Below are positions 1-23,737 of a stretch of DNA of 24,305 nt, in pieces. The DNA comes from a virus (Duplodnaviria > Caudoviricetes). Position 1 is the first letter of the stretch. Each line of letters opens with the position of its first letter. The notes under the pieces are model-generated. The model had not been told where the DNA came from. It saw only the letters and a list, made by a program, of their open reading frames with translations, and did not search any database. The stretch spans positions 1 to 24,305 of the IMG/VR virus record IMGVR_UViG_3300038365_000070. One strand, 5' to 3'. Both the position numbers and the translations under genes were made by a program.

Positions 1-247
1 GCAGCATATGCTGTAATTCACTTTGTGCGCCGGAAATCGTGCGGGTATAACTATATAAATAAGCGCCCCAGGGAATCCCGAGGCGCTCACACTCTCTTAC
101 ATTGCGCGCATACTGTACATCATCCTGCGATGTACTGTTGCTGCCATACCCCAATTGGAGAATGGCGAACTGCAGTCCGGCCGCTTTTGCTTTGTTCCAG
201 TCCACACGGCCATTGCAGTAACTCACGTCAATTCCTCTGTACGACAT
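1..247 (-). CDS. GH25 muramidase endolysin, 5' part (runs off the left edge)
   Basis: Not in the ORF track. Manual translation from ATG 247 with RBS AAGGAGG: MSYRGIDVSYCNGRVDWNKAKAAGLQFAILQLGYGSNSTSQDDVQYARNVRECERLGIPWGAYLYSY. GIDVS, DW..vk..G..Fai and G.Y.YSY are GH25 hallmarks. Confidence 0.92.
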   Translation of the reverse strand, partial: MSYRGIDVSYCNGRVDWNKAKAAGLQFAILQLGYGSNSTSQDDVQYARNVRECERLGIPWGAYLYSYTRTISGAQSELQHML

Positions 248-264
248 TTTATGTATTAACCTCC

Positions 265-408
265 TTATGTTGTGGCCGTGCCGGTACTGTAGGTTTCACC
301 AGTGATAGTTTTGTACTGGTCTGCCGTAATCAGGCTGTACCCAACTGCCTGTTTCAGTTGGTCGAGTGTCGCCCATTTGTGAGTATAAGCTAACTGCCAA
401 AATTTCAT
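265..408 (-). CDS. XkdX-family small phage protein (47 aa)
   Basis: Not in the ORF track. MKFWQLAYTHKWATLDQLKQAVGYSLITADQYKTITGETYSTGTATT carries the XkdX motif IT.dqYk.ITG..Y. ATGA overlap with the upstream gene; typical position before lysis genes. Confidence 0.88.
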   Translation of the reverse strand: MKFWQLAYTHKWATLDQLKQAVGYSLITADQYKTITGETYSTGTATT

Positions 409-728
409 GTTGCTTCACCGCCCTTCGCCGCTGCAAACTGCAATGTTAATGCAGACACCTGCTGTCCCAATCCATCAATCGTCTGCTGCACCGACTCCGG
501 CACTGTGGTCGGCGCCGCGAATTTGCCGTCAGACCAGAGATACCCCTGCTGCGCGTCACCTGTCGTGTCGGTGATTTCAACGTAATACTGCAGCATGTCC
601 GGATGAATAATCTGTTCCAATGCCAGTTCTCCATCTCCTACATCTTTCTTATAACGTCCTGAACAGCGGGTTTCCACGGACATTACCTGCCCACCATAAT
701 TTACAAATGCATATCGTTTTGTTGCCAT
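405..728 (-). CDS. Probable tail-fibre assembly/XkdW-like protein (107 aa)
   Basis: RBS AGGAGG; lies between fibre genes and xkdX; G(Y/W).W.DGKF.AP motif followed by a short coiled-coil (QQTIDGLGQQVSALTLQ). Confidence 0.65.
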   Translation of the reverse strand: MATKRYAFVNYGGQVMSVETRCSGRYKKDVGDGELALEQIIHPDMLQYYVEITDTTGDAQQGYLWSDGKFAAPTTVPESVQQTIDGLGQQVSALTLQFAAAKGGEAT

Positions 729-739
729 GTTCGTACCTC

Positions 740-1415
740 CTATTTTAGATATTCGATAATTATTGCTGCACTTTTAAATGTTTTGGGATATCTAGCATCA
801 TAATCGCTCGTTTGCCATCCTCCAGCTCCAAATGGGAGTTTATTATTACATGAAACCGGATTGAATTGAGTAATTTCTGTAAAATCTTCGTAAGTTGCCT
901 TTATAAATTTTACAGAAATTACTCCTCCGGATATTCCCCCATATTTAGAAGATGAATTTGTATCTCCACCAATTATTTTTGTGTAACTATCATTGGATAA
1001 ATAATATTTCCCATCACCGCCTTGGTAGTTTCCAATATTTCCACCAGATGCTCCTCCTCCAGTTCCTGAATACACAGAATAAGCTCCATTTATAATACTA
1101 TCGGAAGCGTTAGAACCGGCATTAGTAGATAATAGGTTTCCAAAGGACGTAACAGCAGAATCCAATGTTAATATATAATTTGAACCTTTTTGAATAGGCA
1201 ATATGCTTTCAGCAATGCCCCCAGCACCACCGCCCCCAGATTGGCTCCCACCACAAATACTTTGCCCACCCGCGCCGATGCATGTCACCCGATATGTTCC
1301 GCTTCGTGGACACGTCCATGTTCCGGACTCCGTAAGAATTTGTGTAGGTTGTGTAAATCCATCAGGAGGTACCCCCCCCCCGTTGGGATTTTCTGGTAAT
1401 CAACACTTCGCCCAA
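740..1415 (-). pseudogene. Glycine-rich tail fibre-tip/receptor-binding protein paralog 2, frameshifted at a G10 tract (possible phase-OFF allele; 224 aa if G9)
   Basis: AGGAGG (1423-1428) then TTG at 1415. As sequenced it reads MGEVLITRKSQRGGGTS* (TGA 1362-1364). Removing one G gives MGEVLITRKSQRGGVPPDGFTQPTQILTESGTWTCPRSGTYRVTCIGAGG..., in frame with ORF 740..1288 and colinear with the 227-aa paralog. Confidence 0.85.
1372..1381 (-). repeat. Poly-G10 homopolymer (C10 on + strand) inside the 5' end of fibre-tip gene 2
   Basis: Counted directly (1372-1381) and consistent with the + strand ORF reading T-P-P-P (acc ccc ccc ccg). It is the longest homopolymer I noticed in the window. Confidence 0.95.
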
Positions 1416-1427
1416 TTTTATTCCTCC

Positions 1428-2111
1428 TCACTTTATTTGCTCTATAATGACTGCGCCATTTAATTTAGGGGTAACCTCAAAGGCTTCACCGGTATCACTA
1501 GGGACGGCCTGTTCAAATTCTCCTGTTCCCTGTCCACCACCATATAAATCTTTAATACTTGTTCTTTGATTTTCGCTTAGAACAATGTATCGATAAACAC
1601 TGGAAAGTGGATTTGCTACTGACATAAGCACTCTACTTCTAGATGCACCACCATACTTTGCGGCACTGTCTGTACTTCCTAAGTTTGAACCTGTATAATT
1701 TCCAATATTACCACCATTGCCAGCACCGCCTGTTCCACTTTGCAATGTTACTCGTTCAGTCGTATACGTAAACGTTGCTACCCCATCTGAACCTGCCGTT
1801 GCAGATAAATAAGCACCAAAACTTGAAACCCCTGCATCCAATGTGATAGCAATGTTGCTGTCCTTAGCTAATTTTAATGTGCTCTCTGCTATTCCACCGC
1901 CGCCACCATTAGTAAACCAGTTATGTTCACCCCCTGGACCTTCTTGCATATACCCAGCCGCTGTACCTCCGCTTCCAATACAGGATATACGGTAGGTACC
2001 AGATTCAGGTACTGTCCATGTGCCAGATTGCGTCAAAATCGCTACAATTGGGTATGCAACGCTCGGAGGAATACCTGCACCACCCCGTCTTGAAATTAAA
2101 CAATCACTCAT
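1428..2111 (-). CDS. Glycine-rich tail fibre-tip/receptor-binding protein paralog 1 (227 aa)
   Basis: ILTQSGTWTVPESGTYRISCIGSGG...GGGGGIAES...SSFGAYLSATAG...GAVIIE is the glycine-rich fibre domain pattern. ATGA-coupled to the upstream fibre gene, RBS GGAGGT. Confidence 0.82.
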   Translation of the reverse strand: MSDCLISRRGGAGIPPSVAYPIVAILTQSGTWTVPESGTYRISCIGSGGTAAGYMQEGPGGEHNWFTNGGGGGIAESTLKLAKDSNIAITLDAGVSSFGAYLSATAGSDGVATFTYTTERVTLQSGTGGAGNGGNIGNYTGSNLGSTDSAAKYGGASRSRVLMSVANPLSSVYRYIVLSENQRTSIKDLYGGGQGTGEFEQAVPSDTGEAFEVTPKLNGAVIIEQIK

Positions 2112-3070
2112 GTGACCACCTCCAAGTGTACCGTGATATCAACGCCCGGCTTAAAATCATAACAGGTTAAAGTCAAGGTACCATCTCCTGTAACTGCCTT
2201 GTCAAGGTAACCATAGGCATCCAACTGAGACCGTGCGGTATCTACATCGTCTGACTGCACTAGGTCCATCACCGGACACATTGCGGCAGTCAAGCCAGAA
2301 ACGCTGACCGTCTGCGTGTAGGGTCCGTCGCCGGTCCAGCCGGATGCAGGTACTGCAACGTCAAATTGATAATGGTTTGTTTTCTCATTCCATGCTTCAC
2401 GTTCTGCTGCGGTGATGTGTACGGTAGTATCGGCTACATGATTGCTGAGTTGTATCGCTTGCGCAGACGTCATATACCCATCATGTGTACTGTCAGCTGC
2501 CGGAATGCTAATTATATTTCCATCTGCTGAAAGAGCACTGTTATCCCCAAGTTTAACGCTGGTTGCCGCAATTGCTTGAAAATCATTCAATGCTTTCTGT
2601 ATTTTAGCAACGTCTGCCTTACTTGCGATAACGACAGTCGGGTCAATCACCACGTTAACGCCTCGCGCATCCACCACACTAATATAGATGTACAGGTCCA
2701 TCTCCATAATGGCGCCGGATGTGACAACTTCTTTCGGAAGCTCCGGCGTATTCCCAATGGCAATTAATCGTCCTGCATCATCCTGCACACCAATTTCCCG
2801 CATGATCCAGCCGCCGACTGAGGATGGTAAAACCGCATGCAGAATCATGCGGTTTGCCTGCTGCGGATCCTGCGTGACCTCTGCAATCGCACCGCTCCAC
2901 ACTTGATGCTTTAACGCTGTCATACCGCTTGTTGGTACATACGGTGTACCGTTCGCGTCCCCGACAACAATCTGTGAAAAATTAACTTTTGTTCCTGTCA
3001 ACACGCTGTTGGCAATGGCCGCATTTCCAATATCCGTGCACAGCGTTCCAAATAATTGTGTATCCGCCAT
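2108..3070 (-). CDS. Tail fibre protein with N-terminal tail-collar (DUF3751-like) domain (320 aa)
   Basis: N-terminus T..G.A.IAN......VVGDANG..Y.P....TAL..QVW...GGW.MREIG..D..G.LIAIGN.PE..K. Middle motif HVADTTVHITAAEREAWN. C-terminal WTGDGPYTQTVSVSG domain. Follows the XkdU-like gene. Confidence 0.88.
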   Translation of the reverse strand: MADTQLFGTLCTDIGNAAIANSVLTGTKVNFSQIVVGDANGTPYVPTSGMTALKHQVWSGAIAEVTQDPQQANRMILHAVLPSSVGGWIMREIGVQDDAGRLIAIGNTPELPKEVVTSGAIMEMDLYIYISVVDARGVNVVIDPTVVIASKADVAKIQKALNDFQAIAATSVKLGDNSALSADGNIISIPAADSTHDGYMTSAQAIQLSNHVADTTVHITAAEREAWNEKTNHYQFDVAVPASGWTGDGPYTQTVSVSGLTAAMCPVMDLVQSDDVDTARSQLDAYGYLDKAVTGDGTLTLTCYDFKPGVDITVHLEVVT

Positions 3071-3071
3071 A

Positions 3072-3683
3072 TTAACTCCTTTCCAATACAGTAACGGTCA
3101 AGGCTGATTTCATTCCCACCGCTGTGCTGACTGTGCTTACACTGTCATATTGATGCACCTGCCACGGATAAATTGTCATGATGACACCCAATTTGCTGAC
3201 AACGAAAATTCCGGATTCAGCACTTGACTGGAACACAATGCGAATAATATTTTGCATGTTTGCCGGCACAACCCGATGGAGTGTATCATATACCGCCCAA
3301 CGAACGGTATACAATTCCGATGGAATCCGTACGGTTAGTGTATAACCGGAAATTTCTATTGAATATCCGTCATCCCCACAAATGGATGCCAGCATTTGCC
3401 GGAGGCGGCGGATGGTAAACGGCAGCATTTCATTCAGCCGAATGATGACTGCCTTGCGGCGGTCATCCAGTGTACCCGCCGGAGCGATACCAATAATGTT
3501 TTCCCATCGTCTGATCCCATTTGCAGTCATGTAATTGAGAAAATTGTCATTAAGAGCATCGTCCGCACCAGCGCACCAACGGTTTAATTCCGTATCTTCT
3601 GCTCCGGCAATTTCCTGCAGTTCCCGCACATTTTTAAGAATATCAGGAATGTAAGATTCAAGTTGTACTGCTCTGCTGGCCAT
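3072..3683 (-). CDS. XkdU/DUF2313 baseplate wedge protein
   Basis: L.SYIP..L...RE, GI.RWE.IIGI, TLDDRR and VPAN motifs; directly after baseplate J. Confidence 0.85.
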   Translation of the reverse strand: MASRAVQLESYIPDILKNVRELQEIAGAEDTELNRWCAGADDALNDNFLNYMTANGIRRWENIIGIAPAGTLDDRRKAVIIRLNEMLPFTIRRLRQMLASICGDDGYSIEISGYTLTVRIPSELYTVRWAVYDTLHRVVPANMQNIIRIVFQSSAESGIFVVSKLGVIMTIYPWQVHQYDSVSTVSTAVGMKSALTVTVLERS

Positions 3684-5139: not shown

Positions 5140-6384
5140 CTATTTCACTCTCCCATAACTGTAAAAATGCTGCTTCCAGTAAGGCGTTGTGCAGCTTGTG
5201 TATTGCACCTGCGTCCCTCCTTCTTCCAGCATGGTGCCATTACCCGCATAGATTCCAACATGCGTGATTGTTTCGCCGCAATTGTAGGTACCTTTGAAAA
5301 AGATGATATCGCCCGCAACGGCCTCTGACGCTGAAATTGCTTTGCAGTAATTATCAAATATGCCCTGCGCTGTGCACCGCGGCATGTTTTTAACACCGGA
5401 ATGTGTAAAAACGTAACAAACAAAGCTGCTGCAGTCCATAGCCTTATGCGGCGTATTGCCGCCCAGCACATACGGTGTGCCCAGAAGGCTGTCCCCAACT
5501 GCTTTAAGCTTTGCCCAATTGGCTCCAACAGTCCCAGTATTACTTATCCGATAATACCGGAGCACGTGCGGTACATAGAGCGGGTCGCCCTCTCCAGTTG
5601 CATTGTGATATTCAGCCGCAGCGGCTTGACTCCACGTTTTGCAGCCGCTCCACTTTCCATCCGCACGGCCTAAATAGAAGGCAGGGCCATAGTTGTAAAT
5701 CTGTAATGCCATACTGATTCCCGGCTGGTCGCCGGGGCCCTTACATCCTGCAATCTGTAAAGCTTTATGCAGCTCCTGTATACCACACTGAATACTGTAA
5801 TTCGGGTCAGTAATACCATTCGGCACTTTTGGATACTTGGTATTGTATTCACCTTCTGCAGACTGCATAGGATCTTTTCCATTGCCCCCGGACTCTTGCA
5901 TCATCACCGCTAAAATCAGCGGCACATAAGCAGTCATGCCGTAATCTGCCGCTACAGATTCCACTGTGGATTTATATGCCAATACTGCAGCGCTGAGATT
6001 TACGGCTGAAGCACTGCCGTCTACGCCGGTACCGCTGACAGAATAGCCGCCTGTGCGGTCGATAATTAAAAATTGCTGGCCGCCGGGCATCCGTAAAAGG
6101 GTAACACCTTCATCTTTCTTGAGGGAATTGTAAACATTCACAGAGGTTTTAGTACCGTCTTCCGAATCCATTTGAATCTGAAAATCAGTGACCGAACGGG
6201 TAAGCATAAGCTGAGACTGTGGAATGACCATCTTGTCCTTATCATCAATTCTAATTTTGAGAGGGTCAGCACTGACAACGGTTCCAAACATTACAGTCAT
6301 TGGTTTTTCTGCATTAACTGTCTGCTTAATAATCATGCGGATTGAATTTACAAATTCTTCAGCTAGCACTGTTAATCGCCGCAC
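5140..6384 (-). CDS. XkdR/DUF2577-like spike fused to lysozyme-like and NlpC/P60 domains (CwlT-like bifunctional hydrolase); start may be GTG 6369
   Basis: aa ~1-112: FGTVVS.DPLKI..D...LK..E.V.LLR..GGQQF.IIDR. aa ~130-280: LAVMMQESGG...DPMQS.EG...ALQ.YNYG...GDP.YVPHVLRYY. aa ~295-414: LGTPYV.GG...DCSSFV...GDIIFF...THVGIYAG. Confidence 0.88.
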   Translation of the reverse strand: MRRLTVLAEEFVNSIRMIIKQTVNAEKPMTVMFGTVVSADPLKIRIDDKDKMVIPQSQLMLTRSVTDFQIQMDSEDGTKTSVNVYNSLKKDEGVTLLRMPGGQQFLIIDRTGGYSVSGTGVDGSASAVNLSAAVLAYKSTVESVAADYGMTAYVPLILAVMMQESGGNGKDPMQSAEGEYNTKYPKVPNGITDPNYSIQCGIQELHKALQIAGCKGPGDQPGISMALQIYNYGPAFYLGRADGKWSGCKTWSQAAAAEYHNATGEGDPLYVPHVLRYYRISNTGTVGANWAKLKAVGDSLLGTPYVLGGNTPHKAMDCSSFVCYVFTHSGVKNMPRCTAQGIFDNYCKAISASEAVAGDIIFFKGTYNCGETITHVGIYAGNGTMLEEGGTQVQYTSCTTPYWKQHFYSYGRVK

Positions 6385-7420
6385 CTTCTACAACAAGGTC
6401 CATTGTATGAACGTTGCCCTCCCATTTATGGGTCACACGGTCTACGATCATATAATTGTCCTGCATAACGTTTCCCATATTGAGACGTACATAAATTCGA
6501 CTTCCTCCCCGTACACGGTTATCACCTGGTACCCCCTTTAGAGTGGCACTTCTTTGAACTGAATTATATAGCTGAAGCAAAGTATTCACTTTTTGTATTG
6601 CATGCGCTTCATCATCCCCAGTATTAGCTTTCGGGCTTCCATCTTTGTTTAACGTTTTCGTCGCATTGGTGCTGCTAGTACCCGTTTCATATTTCTCCAA
6701 TAGCCCATATTTTGAGATGCTTGCTTCATCTTTTGCCATGTATACCTTACGGGAGCTACTATTACTGTCGGTAAAAACGAGTTTTACCAGGTTATACGTC
6801 TGACTGTCAATAGTAGTCTGTAAATCATAATCCTCTGTTGTACTGGAGGTAATCATTAAAGGGAGTGTCATATTTTCTATATTTTTCAGGGTAAGCTTTC
6901 CGACGTCATCATACAAAATAAAAAGCTTGTTGTTCTCCATCAAAGCGGTATCCAGCAAATCTCCGATGATATCGAAAAGAGTTTTATTATCGCCATTGTA
7001 TGTATCAATTAAAACCCCTGTTTTGTCCAAATTCCCAATCGTTAAGCGATAGGTATCCGCGATGAATTTGATAATCATTTCAAGCGGTTCATGCTCAAAA
7101 ATAAAAGAATCTGTATTTTTCAGGTATCTCAACTGGTCATATGCGGTAACATGTATTTTCCCATCTTTGCTGTGACTGGTAGTAAATGTAAATCCATGGA
7201 ACAGCTTTGTGCTTCCATCCGCAAGTTCCACAACATCTCCTGGTTCAATTACATGGTCTGTATACATATCCCACGTTAGTATTCCGGGTGACCCGCTTCG
7301 TGAGGTTTCCCATGTAATCCCCTCACATACACATGGTGTATACCAAACGCCACGGTCATAATACTTTAAATCCAGTATGAAATTTGTAGGCCGTACTGGA
7401 TATAGATTTATAATACTCAT
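6359..7420 (-). CDS. XkdQ/YqbQ baseplate hub protein
   Basis: I.W...R.GSPG.L, LF.GF.F, TAYDQLRYLKN.D, LYDD.GKL.LK and ID..TYN.VKL motifs. Likely start is ATG 7420 (ATGA overlap with the LysM gene, RBS GGGAGGTG). Confidence 0.9.
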   Translation of the reverse strand: MSIINLYPVRPTNFILDLKYYDRGVWYTPCVCEGITWETSRSGSPGILTWDMYTDHVIEPGDVVELADGSTKLFHGFTFTTSHSKDGKIHVTAYDQLRYLKNTDSFIFEHEPLEMIIKFIADTYRLTIGNLDKTGVLIDTYNGDNKTLFDIIGDLLDTALMENNKLFILYDDVGKLTLKNIENMTLPLMITSSTTEDYDLQTTIDSQTYNLVKLVFTDSNSSSRKVYMAKDEASISKYGLLEKYETGTSSTNATKTLNKDGSPKANTGDDEAHAIQKVNTLLQLYNSVQRSATLKGVPGDNRVRGGSRIYVRLNMGNVMQDNYMIVDRVTHKWEGNVHTMDLVVEGAAINSAS

Positions 7421-8130
7421 GGTACGGCTAACACCTCCCCAGGATAAATCCACCAGCCATTTGACGAACTGGCGTGACCATGTTTCTTCGCTGTATTTTC
7501 AATCGTTGCTTTATTGGCAGCATATATTTTAGCCCATTTTGCACCATCTCCATATACTTTTTTCGCAATCAGCCACAGAGAATCATTTTGCTGCACCCTA
7601 TAGTTTTTTACCGTCTTTTTCCCTACTGTAGACCTTATTTTTGTAGCGGTTGTAGTCACTGTTCCGTTGGATGCCTGTACGATTGTATAGTTTTTTAAAT
7701 TTCGGTCCATATAGGTTTTTAGATTTACCTGAAACACAAAATCGTCACCATTTTCAGCGTCTTCTTCCTGCTGATAATCCTCCAAAGATACGTTGAGATT
7801 TGTATCATAAACAGCAATATTAGATCGGTCAATTCGAGTAACGATAAACCGAAACGGAGCACGAGAAGTTTTCAGATGGCTTAAAAATTTAACCCATTCC
7901 GCAGGCGTGTATACCAATGAATGATACGTGTTAAATGCCCATGGATATATACCTGCATTTTCCGCAGGAATTTCAAAGGTGAAAGATATATCCGTCAACC
8001 CCGGTGCTTTTAAGTGATTGATAGTGGTATCATCTACAAGAGACACTGTCTGATTACGGTTATTAATCTTCATAGTTAACTTTCCAGGCGTAATTGGCAA
8101 AATCGCACCTGCAAGATAAAATCTATACAT
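7417..8130 (-). CDS. XkdP-like LysM-domain tail tube initiator
   Basis: N-terminal LPITP.KL..KINN.N.T..L; C-terminal LysM YRVQQNDSLWLIAKKVYGDGAKWAKIY.AN...WIYPGEVL.VP. Confidence 0.92.
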   Translation of the reverse strand: MYRFYLAGAILPITPGKLTMKINNRNQTVSLVDDTTINHLKAPGLTDISFTFEIPAENAGIYPWAFNTYHSLVYTPAEWVKFLSHLKTSRAPFRFIVTRIDRSNIAVYDTNLNVSLEDYQQEEDAENGDDFVFQVNLKTYMDRNLKNYTIVQASNGTVTTTATKIRSTVGKKTVKNYRVQQNDSLWLIAKKVYGDGAKWAKIYAANKATIENTAKKHGHASSSNGWWIYPGEVLAVP

Positions 8131-22733: not shown

Positions 22734-22853
22734 TCATTTACGGTATATGTTCTTTAAAACATTTGACATTTTAAGCACTGACGACCAAAAAGTGAGTCTA
22801 AGTTTCGTGATAAAGATTTTACAGCGCTTTTTTACGAACAATTTTTTACTCAT
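22734..22853 (-). CDS. Possible small basic peptide (39 aa)
   Basis: RBS AGAGGAG, ATG 22853, MSKKLFVKKRCKIFITKLRLTFWSSVLKMSNVLKNIYRK*. Ends just before the activator RBS. Confidence 0.4.
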   Translation of the reverse strand: MSKKLFVKKRCKIFITKLRLTFWSSVLKMSNVLKNIYRK

Positions 22854-22882
22854 TTGTTTCTCCTCTGGTTTTGATGTATAAT
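22854..22882 (+). promoter_or_regulatory. Putative sigma-A promoter of the moron
   Basis: TTGTTT (22854-22859), 17-bp spacer, perfect TATAAT (22877-22882), then AGGAG RBS (22896-22900) and ATG 22910. Confidence 0.65.
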
Positions 22883-22909
22883 TGTTAAAATTTGTAGGAG
22901 ATGATGTAA

Positions 22910-23737
22910 ATGGATACTGAATTGGAACAAAATAAAAATGTTGACTTACAGCTGAAAGGTGCCCATGGAAATGCCGCATATAATTTGACTGACAAAGTAT
23001 CTCAAAATGTTGGTAACACTTTAGCAAACCTTTGGTATCTTGTTTTTGGTGGTATTTCAGAAAAAGCAGAAGAGAAGAAAATGCGATTAGGAATAAAGCT
23101 TCAACAATATCAAAGTGAATTGCAACAGGCCTATTCCAATGTTCCGGAAGAGAATCGTCAAGATGCCCCATTGCAAGTCGTTGGTCCTGCTCTTGAAAAG
23201 TCACGCTACTGTGTCGAATCAGATGAGATTCGAAAAATGTTTGTAAACTTGATTGCAAAATCTATGGATAAAACATATAACACCAAAGTACATCCTTCTT
23301 TCCCCGAAATCATTTCACAAATGTCTCCACTTGACGCACAAAATCTTAAGCTTATATATGAGGCTAAATATCAACTTCCTATTGCAAAATATCGATTTAA
23401 TCTTGTTAAAGAAGGTAGCCATAAGGATGTAAAACCGTTGGTCTTCCTTTCAAACCCTGAAGTACAAAGCGTTGATCTGCAAGCTTCCTCAATAACTGTA
23501 TTGTCTAGGCTTGGGCTATTAGAAGTCACATTCGATGAATATGTATCAGAATCCAACGCTTATGATGCTTTTCAAACCGATCCGCTGCTTCTAGCTTTTA
23601 AAAATATGGTTCCTACTGAGCCAGAATATGGTTATCAATCCCCAGAAGACGATGATAAAATAAAAGAGTGCATTATGATGAAGGGACTGGTTCGTATAAC
23701 ACCGATAGGAAAAGACTTTGCATCAGTTTGCATATAG
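22910..23737 (+). CDS. DUF4393/Abi-alpha-like protein (moron, candidate abortive-infection defence)
   Basis: GPALE.SRY......IR.MF.NLIA.SMD......VHPSF.EII.QMSP.DA..L, S...L.RLGL and C-terminal ITPIG..F..VC. AT-rich, opposite strand, own promoter. Confidence 0.82.
   Translation: MDTELEQNKNVDLQLKGAHGNAAYNLTDKVSQNVGNTLANLWYLVFGGISEKAEEKKMRLGIKLQQYQSELQQAYSNVPEENRQDAPLQVVGPALEKSRYCVESDEIRKMFVNLIAKSMDKTYNTKVHPSFPEIISQMSPLDAQNLKLIYEAKYQLPIAKYRFNLVKEGSHKDVKPLVFLSNPEVQSVDLQASSITVLSRLGLLEVTFDEYVSESNAYDAFQTDPLLLAFKNMVPTEPEYGYQSPEDDDKIKECIMMKGLVRITPIGKDFASVCI

Follow-up and report, generated by a model that had tools for sequence, protein, structure and literature searches.

Natural length variation of a poly-G tract in one of a pair of predicted fibre-tip adhesin genes, in a myophage that probably infects Caproicibacterium

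Sorensen and colleagues reportedly described, in Cell Rep in 2021, the phase variation of receptor-binding proteins (RBPs) of Campylobacter Fletcherviruses through polyG tracts. Slipped-strand mispairing is an established process at homopolymers, and slippage occurs there regardless of function. The RBP genes of Fletcherviruses contain tracts of 7 to 11 G's (PMC12633550 and PMC8713573, in the portions available), and a constant RBP1 is accompanied by a phase-variable RBP2 (available portions of PMC8713573 and PMC11868660; background in PMC10877375). Two other contingency loci, agt of phage T2 and rIIA of phage T4, are built on A runs in defence-related genes, for which reversion rates were measured and the minority alleles were rare (Gomez, Barrick, Waters, PMC12633550, as excerpted), and the same excerpt names a PB1-like baseplate gene and a methylase gene as further carriers of polyG tracts (PMC12633550). 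A different kind of receptor variation is found in T-even gp38 and in the adhesins of hafunaviruses, which have conserved ends and Gly motifs and exchange their variable segments (PMC12032242 and PMC8651126, excerpts). In the literature that we found, polyG switching of a phage RBP had been tested only in the Campylobacter Fletcherviruses, and a search of mainly open-access literature returned nothing on a comparable tract in phages that infect Oscillospiraceae or other Clostridia. Here, we describe a poly-G tract that varies naturally in length, as the sequences compared below show, in the gene for a second tip protein of a myophage, probably an accessory adhesin.

The window, by which we mean the whole 24,305-nt stretch of DNA analysed, is an entire virus record and carries its morphogenesis module on the minus strand (terminase, SPP1-type portal, major capsid, sheath, tape measure, lysozyme/NlpC-P60, baseplate J, a Mu gp48-like protein and the fibre). 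The phage is a myophage. Past the 320-aa fibre gene, two Gly-rich tip genes are followed by a 107-aa gene, XkdX and a GH25 endolysin, and the features of this region are as follows.

1..247, minus strand: GH25 endolysin, truncated by the contig end (PF01183)
265..408, minus strand: small gene of the XkdX family (PF09693)
405..728, minus strand: conserved 107-aa gene after the tip genes, with 95% identity to the siphophage record L001
740..1415, minus strand: tip gene 2, Gly-rich; its in-frame product (P0003) is 224 aa long and is predicted to be a fibre-tip adhesin of Gly_rich_2-like type
1362..1415, minus strand: 17-codon product of the OFF allele, from the TTG start to a TGA stop right past the tract, as read in the sequence
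1372..1381, minus strand: poly-G tract, G10, in the OFF state (it reads C10 on the plus strand)
1423..1428, minus strand: AGGAGG ribosome-binding site of tip gene 2, with a 7-nt spacer to the TTG
1429..1431, minus strand: GTG that shares bases with the tip gene 1 stop (GTGA) and reads in frame into the gene-2 body at G5, G8 and G11
1428..2111, minus strand: tip gene 1, the intact 227-aa paralogue, with interrupted Gly codons
2108..3070, minus strand: short tail fibre/adaptor of 320 aa, with a PF12571 N-terminus and a C-terminal ~90 aa as in siphophage homologues

Searches of Pfam and PHROG gave no match for the 107-aa gene (405..728), and a promoter and terminator scan returned background levels only (4 vs 5.9 and 2 vs 2.5). 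The last ~90 aa of the fibre, compared between window 2079-2375 and the related loci L001 and L020, are common to myophage and siphophage-type tails. Elsewhere in the window, a DUF2577 baseplate protein is fused with Lysozyme_like and NlpC/P60 domains (5140-6384, minus strand). An Abi_alpha gene in a stretch of low GC (PF14337; 22910-23737, plus strand) lies on the strand opposite to the phage genes, overlaps a TTG ORF (22734-23258, minus strand) and is likely a moron defence gene.

The sequence-only reading had proposed that a G10 run holds the second tip gene in the OFF frame, and the AGGAGG site, the TTG start at 1415 and the stop after 17 aa were all verified. The TTG frame crosses the run at codons 12-15 and ends at a stop at 1364-1362, and the whole gene, up to its stop at 740, measures 676 nt (3n+1) from the TTG. 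Beyond the run, the gene-2 body (740-1372) is stop-free for 210 codons, in agreement with the earlier statement that the remainder holds no further lesion. Read from TTG 1415, the frame yields 223 aa at G6, 224 aa at G9 and 225 aa at G12; it stops at 16-17 aa at G7 or G10 and at 42-43 aa at G8 or G11.

No other G/C run in the 24.3-kb window reaches a length of 7. The plus strand holds 12 C runs of length 5, none of 6 to 9 and one of 10, whereas a first-order Markov model predicts 0.03 C runs of at least 10; the G runs of this strand reach 5 at most. L001 establishes where the gene starts and where it is broken: its flanks match, its run is G6 and in frame, and an intact 223-aa gene opens with an identical ribosome-binding site and TTG. 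Both points are also established by a protein on record with exactly the sequence of the G9 product (P0003). We ruled out a break at the A4 or C3 run preceding the tract, given that homologues retain these flanks and differ in G count alone. The tract sits in a natural Arg-Gly-Gly-Val stretch and thus a run could emerge here without selection for switching. Farther along the gene, a perfect 18-nt inverted repeat with a 21-nt spacer lies within the variable part of the gene-2 body (868-924); in the homologous locus L018, the spacer of the equivalent repeat is altered towards the arm sequence, as template switching might do.

Tract length varies and sets the reading frame. We obtained 11 complete tracts from the window, four sequencing runs and six homologous loci, which do not amount to 11 independent samples given that L017 and L018 come from one assembly, and these comprised one G6, three G7, one G8, one G9, four G10 (window included) and one G11. 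The stretch is contained wholly or partly in 20 of the 22 listed sequencing runs (8 studies); none of the 22 was listed as an RNA run holding the stretch, which is uninformative on expression. The tract was read in 4 of those 20 runs (4 studies), and each showed one tract length, as read from assembled contigs, which lose rare variants. X1 gave a single contig spanning all 2,001 nt, with G10 and 12 substitutions, and X2 likewise gave G10. In X7, 1 base was missing at 1372 (depth 20.6 of 20.6), resulting in an in-frame G9, and in X10, 1 extra base (18.8 of 18.8) resulted in G11. Besides these two tract changes, no indel occurred in the 2,001 nt despite 6 other runs of 5. The substitution at 1403 in X2 and X10 marks a 5' end typical of siphophage-type loci, and their tracts may thus come from a relative; more generally, the tract flanks are common to several phages within one sample, so that the tract of a contig may derive from a co-occurring relative. 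X7 has the window's base at 1403, and thus a window-type 5' end, and the window's gene-2 body is present in this run as well, apart from one difference.

Homologues were collected by a pattern scan, the matches of which were true for 6 of 6 metagenome contigs, 2 of 3 viral contigs and 0 of 10 genome contigs. All 10 genome-contig matches lacked both the flanks and the run and were put down to chance, as were L003 and L036 from the viral contig scans. The loci with a complete tract were L001 (G6), L016, L017 and L018 (G7), L020 (G8) and L019 (G10). L019 and L020 show no mismatch in 1,789 nt, the tract being their sole difference (G10 vs G8), and L016 differs from the window over 1,973 nt by 2 mismatches and a single gap, which is located at the tract. 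These comparisons indicate that the tract changes much faster than the surrounding bases. Two outcomes that had been named in advance as speaking against a switch did not occur: length was not invariant in the homologs (G6-G11 were observed), and, given that independent assemblies give G10 and other lengths, the tract is not a uniform G9 misread through assembly error.

Tip gene 1 is free of such a tract. Its Arg-Gly-Gly stretch is encoded by interrupted codons in 7 of 7 loci, which have 3 different 5' sequences, and the longest G run in its first 60 nt is 4 in the window and 4-5 across the seven, in line with the earlier remark that the paralogue encodes this segment without a long G run. In L021, a gene-1 allele has an in-frame G7 inside its body (328-334), which indicates that G runs can appear in Gly-rich tip genes outside the 5' tract. 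The two paralogues had been said to align end to end; this holds only loosely: BLASTP aligned residues 1-102 (48%), and in a multiple alignment the proteins are 38% identical overall and have a C-terminal motif in common.

Both tip genes likely encode proteins that we predict to be fibre-tip adhesins. A Pfam search of the two window proteins (P0002, P0003) gave no match; Gly_rich_2 (PF21722) was matched by 5 of 16 aligned relatives (best E 1.2e-9), and the Atlas sets both proteins beside Gly_rich_2 clusters (0.95 for gene 2, 0.96 for gene 1). The Atlas model of gene 1 (pTM 0.69) has a TM of 0.63-0.65 to parts of tail-collar-fibre proteins and of 0.59 to a Gly_rich_2 domain. The tip gene product has a PHROG tail match (E 2.6e-5), and its gene is positioned after the fibre gene. 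A profile search collected 463 representatives at E <=0.001, either stand-alone or within longer proteins, and a profile search of PDB sequences returned nothing under E 0.17. In the alignment, the tip proteins have conserved ends, with Gly motifs spaced by hypervariable segments. When the complex of P0003 with a trimer of the fibre C-terminus was predicted, it scored 0.33 compared to 0.00 for the best control. This was rated weak on a calibration in which 116 of 157 solved pairs, as against 2 of 215 mismatched pairs, reached the mark; of these, only 18 solved pairs, along with both mismatched ones, scored 0.60 or less. The runs agreed in at least 66% of contacts, with a partner pLDDT of at least 72. 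This model weakly suggests that the C-terminal ~90 aa of the fibre may bind the tip protein.

The exact 224-aa in-frame product is recorded on 8 contigs in a protein collection. Gene-2-type proteins numbered at least 35 among the matches listed (for one cluster, the best 15 of 23 members), comprising 18 with a full N-terminus, 3 with the G8 alternative start and 14 that were N-truncated. The 18 full-N-terminus proteins among the matches listed read QRGGVPP (10), QRGVPP (6) or QRGWVPP (2), and in the last group the run is presumably interrupted. The 14 N-truncated calls, 3 of which were tied to DNA (window, L016, L018), are not countable as OFF alleles, given that they could reflect contig ends or missed TTG starts. 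We considered a 182-aa product from an internal start as a functional protein and found it unlikely to work, given that the missing first 42 residues include conserved motifs. OFF alleles filed as 182-aa or 229-aa "hypothetical proteins" represent an annotation trap.

We consider it probable, though well short of assured, that tip gene 2 is an accessory tip adhesin gene subject to slipped-strand phase variation. Mispairing would change the G count and thereby switch the gene on or off. Both tip proteins would sit at the tip of the short fibre, where gene 1, always made, would supply the constant tip, and gene 2 an accessory tip that may be dispensable on the usual host. The phages seem to be temperate: 4 of 5 related records are classed as proviruses, and no integrase was recognised in the part of the window's ORFs that was scanned. 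Slippage would take place in phage replication and probably in the prophage state too, yielding lysogen clones or virion pools with or without the second tip, and such a mixture of virion types would alter host range. Given that the phages seem temperate, the tract could drift during lysogeny as well, which would explain why majority alleles differ between samples. The interpretation first proposed for this locus thus survived in part, with the variable tract, the tract-free paralogue and the fibre-tip resemblance standing, but decay of the gene keeps a lesser yet substantial chance. That interpretation did not include the range of tract lengths from 6 to 11, the presence of the module in siphophages or the exchange of gene bodies under a constant 5' end that bears the switch.

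Decay is the core of the main rival, which we regard as possible yet doubtful. Here, the run is a mutational hotspot without a selected role, and a dispensable gene 2, unselected in lysogens, drifts, is mostly OFF and heads to loss. The length distribution fits, with 9 of 11 complete tracts out of frame and only 2 (G6 and G9) in frame, which is no more than chance expectation and counts against a selected switch. The provirus class of 4 of the 5 related records and the tendency of homopolymers to slip whatever their function are also in its favour, as is L018, which carries, in addition to G7, two further frameshifts (-1 and +1 changes at two G5 runs, window-equivalent 1218 and 935) and either is a dead, decayed copy or points to platform error in its assembly. 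However, the body is intact in 4 of the 5 OFF loci in which it can be read whole (window, L016, L019 and L020), and the run has been retained in two tail types and in several bodies that have diverged deeply. The form with an interruption (QRGW) is rare, at 2 of 18 full-N-terminus proteins among the matches listed, and the paralogue avoids the run. Such repeats are also under-represented in tail-type genes of coliphages, at 0.77x (PMC12633550, in the part available), which argues against drift.

It is very improbable that the lengths are a sequencing or assembly artefact, with all true alleles in frame and the differences arising from homopolymer errors or collapsed repeats. The sequencing platform is off record, L004 and L021 stop inside the run and L017 one base beyond it, and the two G5 indels of L018 are of the kind seen on some platforms. 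Breakage at the run would likewise be expected of mixed tract lengths, though, and G10 recurs in the window, X1, X2 and L019, the last assembled at a coverage of 302. Differences of 2-4 bases at the tract occur without another indel across 1.0-2.0 kb, and Illumina read-level slippage at repeats of phage T2 averaged 2.94e-4 (PMC12633550, in part).

We give an equally slight chance to a three-state switch, in which G8 and G11 alleles would be translated from the GTG at the gene-1 stop with another N-terminus, leaving only G7 and G10 OFF. The frame from this alternative GTG (1429..1431) is open, giving 229 aa at G8 and 230 aa at G11 with a different N-terminus, and 3 database proteins were called from it. 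A GTGA stop/start overlap is also a classic coupling arrangement. The GTG is nevertheless absent from L001 and L017 and has no clear ribosome-binding site, and its product loses the N-terminal motif conserved in both paralogues. An invertible-segment switch of the Gin/Cin or shufflon kind was rejected given that no inverted pair flanks the tip genes in 200-3200 of this partial record, in which both genes run in the same direction.

A 3.0-Mb record of Caproicibacterium sp. XB1 (Oscillospiraceae) holds the nearest named relatives of both the fibre, at 74% identity, and tip gene 1, and further relatives occur in Ruminococcaceae/Oscillospiraceae MAGs. On the strength of these relatives, the host is probably Caproicibacterium. 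The 5' end of gene 2 is nearly constant ahead of bodies that are 42-51% identical to that of the window (P0001), and within single samples, alternative bodies of both tip genes occur between conserved ends, as contig joints and loose ends. In L001 and L020, the same fibre C-terminus, two tip genes and 107-aa gene stand behind a Dit + Sipho_Gp37 tail, which indicates that the module crosses tail types. Under the phase-variation reading, the switch-bearing 5' end would stay in place as the variable body is swapped by recombination among related myo- and siphophages of the same host group, and receptor variation would have two layers, namely which adhesin is encoded and whether it is made. Of 9 fibre-homologue loci, 8 have different tip genes or end too early. 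In L031, the place directly after the fibre gene (5764-7538), where its relatives have tip genes, is taken by a very Cys-rich repeat protein of 258 aa, a gene for 102 aa and another gene with a CxxxCxxC motif, which we take to be radical-SAM-like.

A bolder proposal is that the locus represents an adhesin cassette that is both portable and switchable and passes between temperate phages with contractile and with non-contractile tails that infect caproate-producing Oscillospiraceae, with the switch set in lysogeny and the arrangement convergent in L030; we offer this only tentatively and think it rather unlikely to hold in full. The constant poly-G 5' end would have been recombined onto many tip bodies, and each lysogen clone, with its switch set during lysogeny, would release its own virion type. 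L030 is another myophage, and its tip genes are unrelated to those described here. Across 5 related records (116 kb), G/C runs of 8 or more occur in two, as the present tract and as the G9 of L030, which is also the sole G/C run of 7 or more among L025-L033. This G9 (in L030 6247-6346) lies in a 14-codon ORF, 39 nt past tip gene A, and one added G would extend the ORF to 29 codons, with its stop overlapping the ATG of the unrelated tip gene B. The G9 is possibly a convergent coupling switch. Under the portable-cassette proposal, the unrelated tip family of L030 would have placed its G9 leader independently, and poly-G control of the second tip would be a convergent rule. None of 20 homologues of L030 gene B had an N-terminal extension containing the leader, and the viral contigs searched held no second copy of the G9 outside its own record, which makes it a lead only.

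If the phase-variation reading is true, polyG switching also occurs in temperate phages that infect Gram-positive anaerobes, and it affects a further adhesin family. Alleles that are ON, OFF or apparently interrupted occur naturally, and the likely host genus has a named genome (Caproicibacterium sp. XB1). For caproate fermentations, this would suggest how phages could keep up with changing host surfaces.

Compared with the known systems, the locus resembles T2 agt and T4 rIIA in that homopolymer slippage frameshifts a phage gene, but here the run is of G, the gene is a tail gene, and the assembled majority allele itself differs between samples. With T-even gp38 and the hafunavirus adhesins, it has in common that a Gly-rich protein is encoded separately, immediately past the fibre gene, that both termini of this protein are conserved, and that the variable part is exchanged; it differs in having two tandem copies, one of them behind poly-G, and in having no sequence match to a solved structure. 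A tblastn search of P0003 against 50,697 GenBank phage records (E 0.01) gave no match and hence no sequence link to the Fletchervirus RBPs. The arrangement nonetheless resembles that of those phages: an accessory tip gene contains a G tract (7-11 in Fletcherviruses, 6-11 in the present locus), the neighbouring tip gene lacks one, and a frameshift switches the tract-bearing gene off. The Fletcherviruses are lytic phages of Campylobacter, whereas the phages described here are of temperate type and probably infect Caproicibacterium (Oscillospiraceae), and the tip protein is Gly_rich_2-like and belongs to a module present in both myo- and siphophages, in which the bodies are swapped under a constant 5' end.
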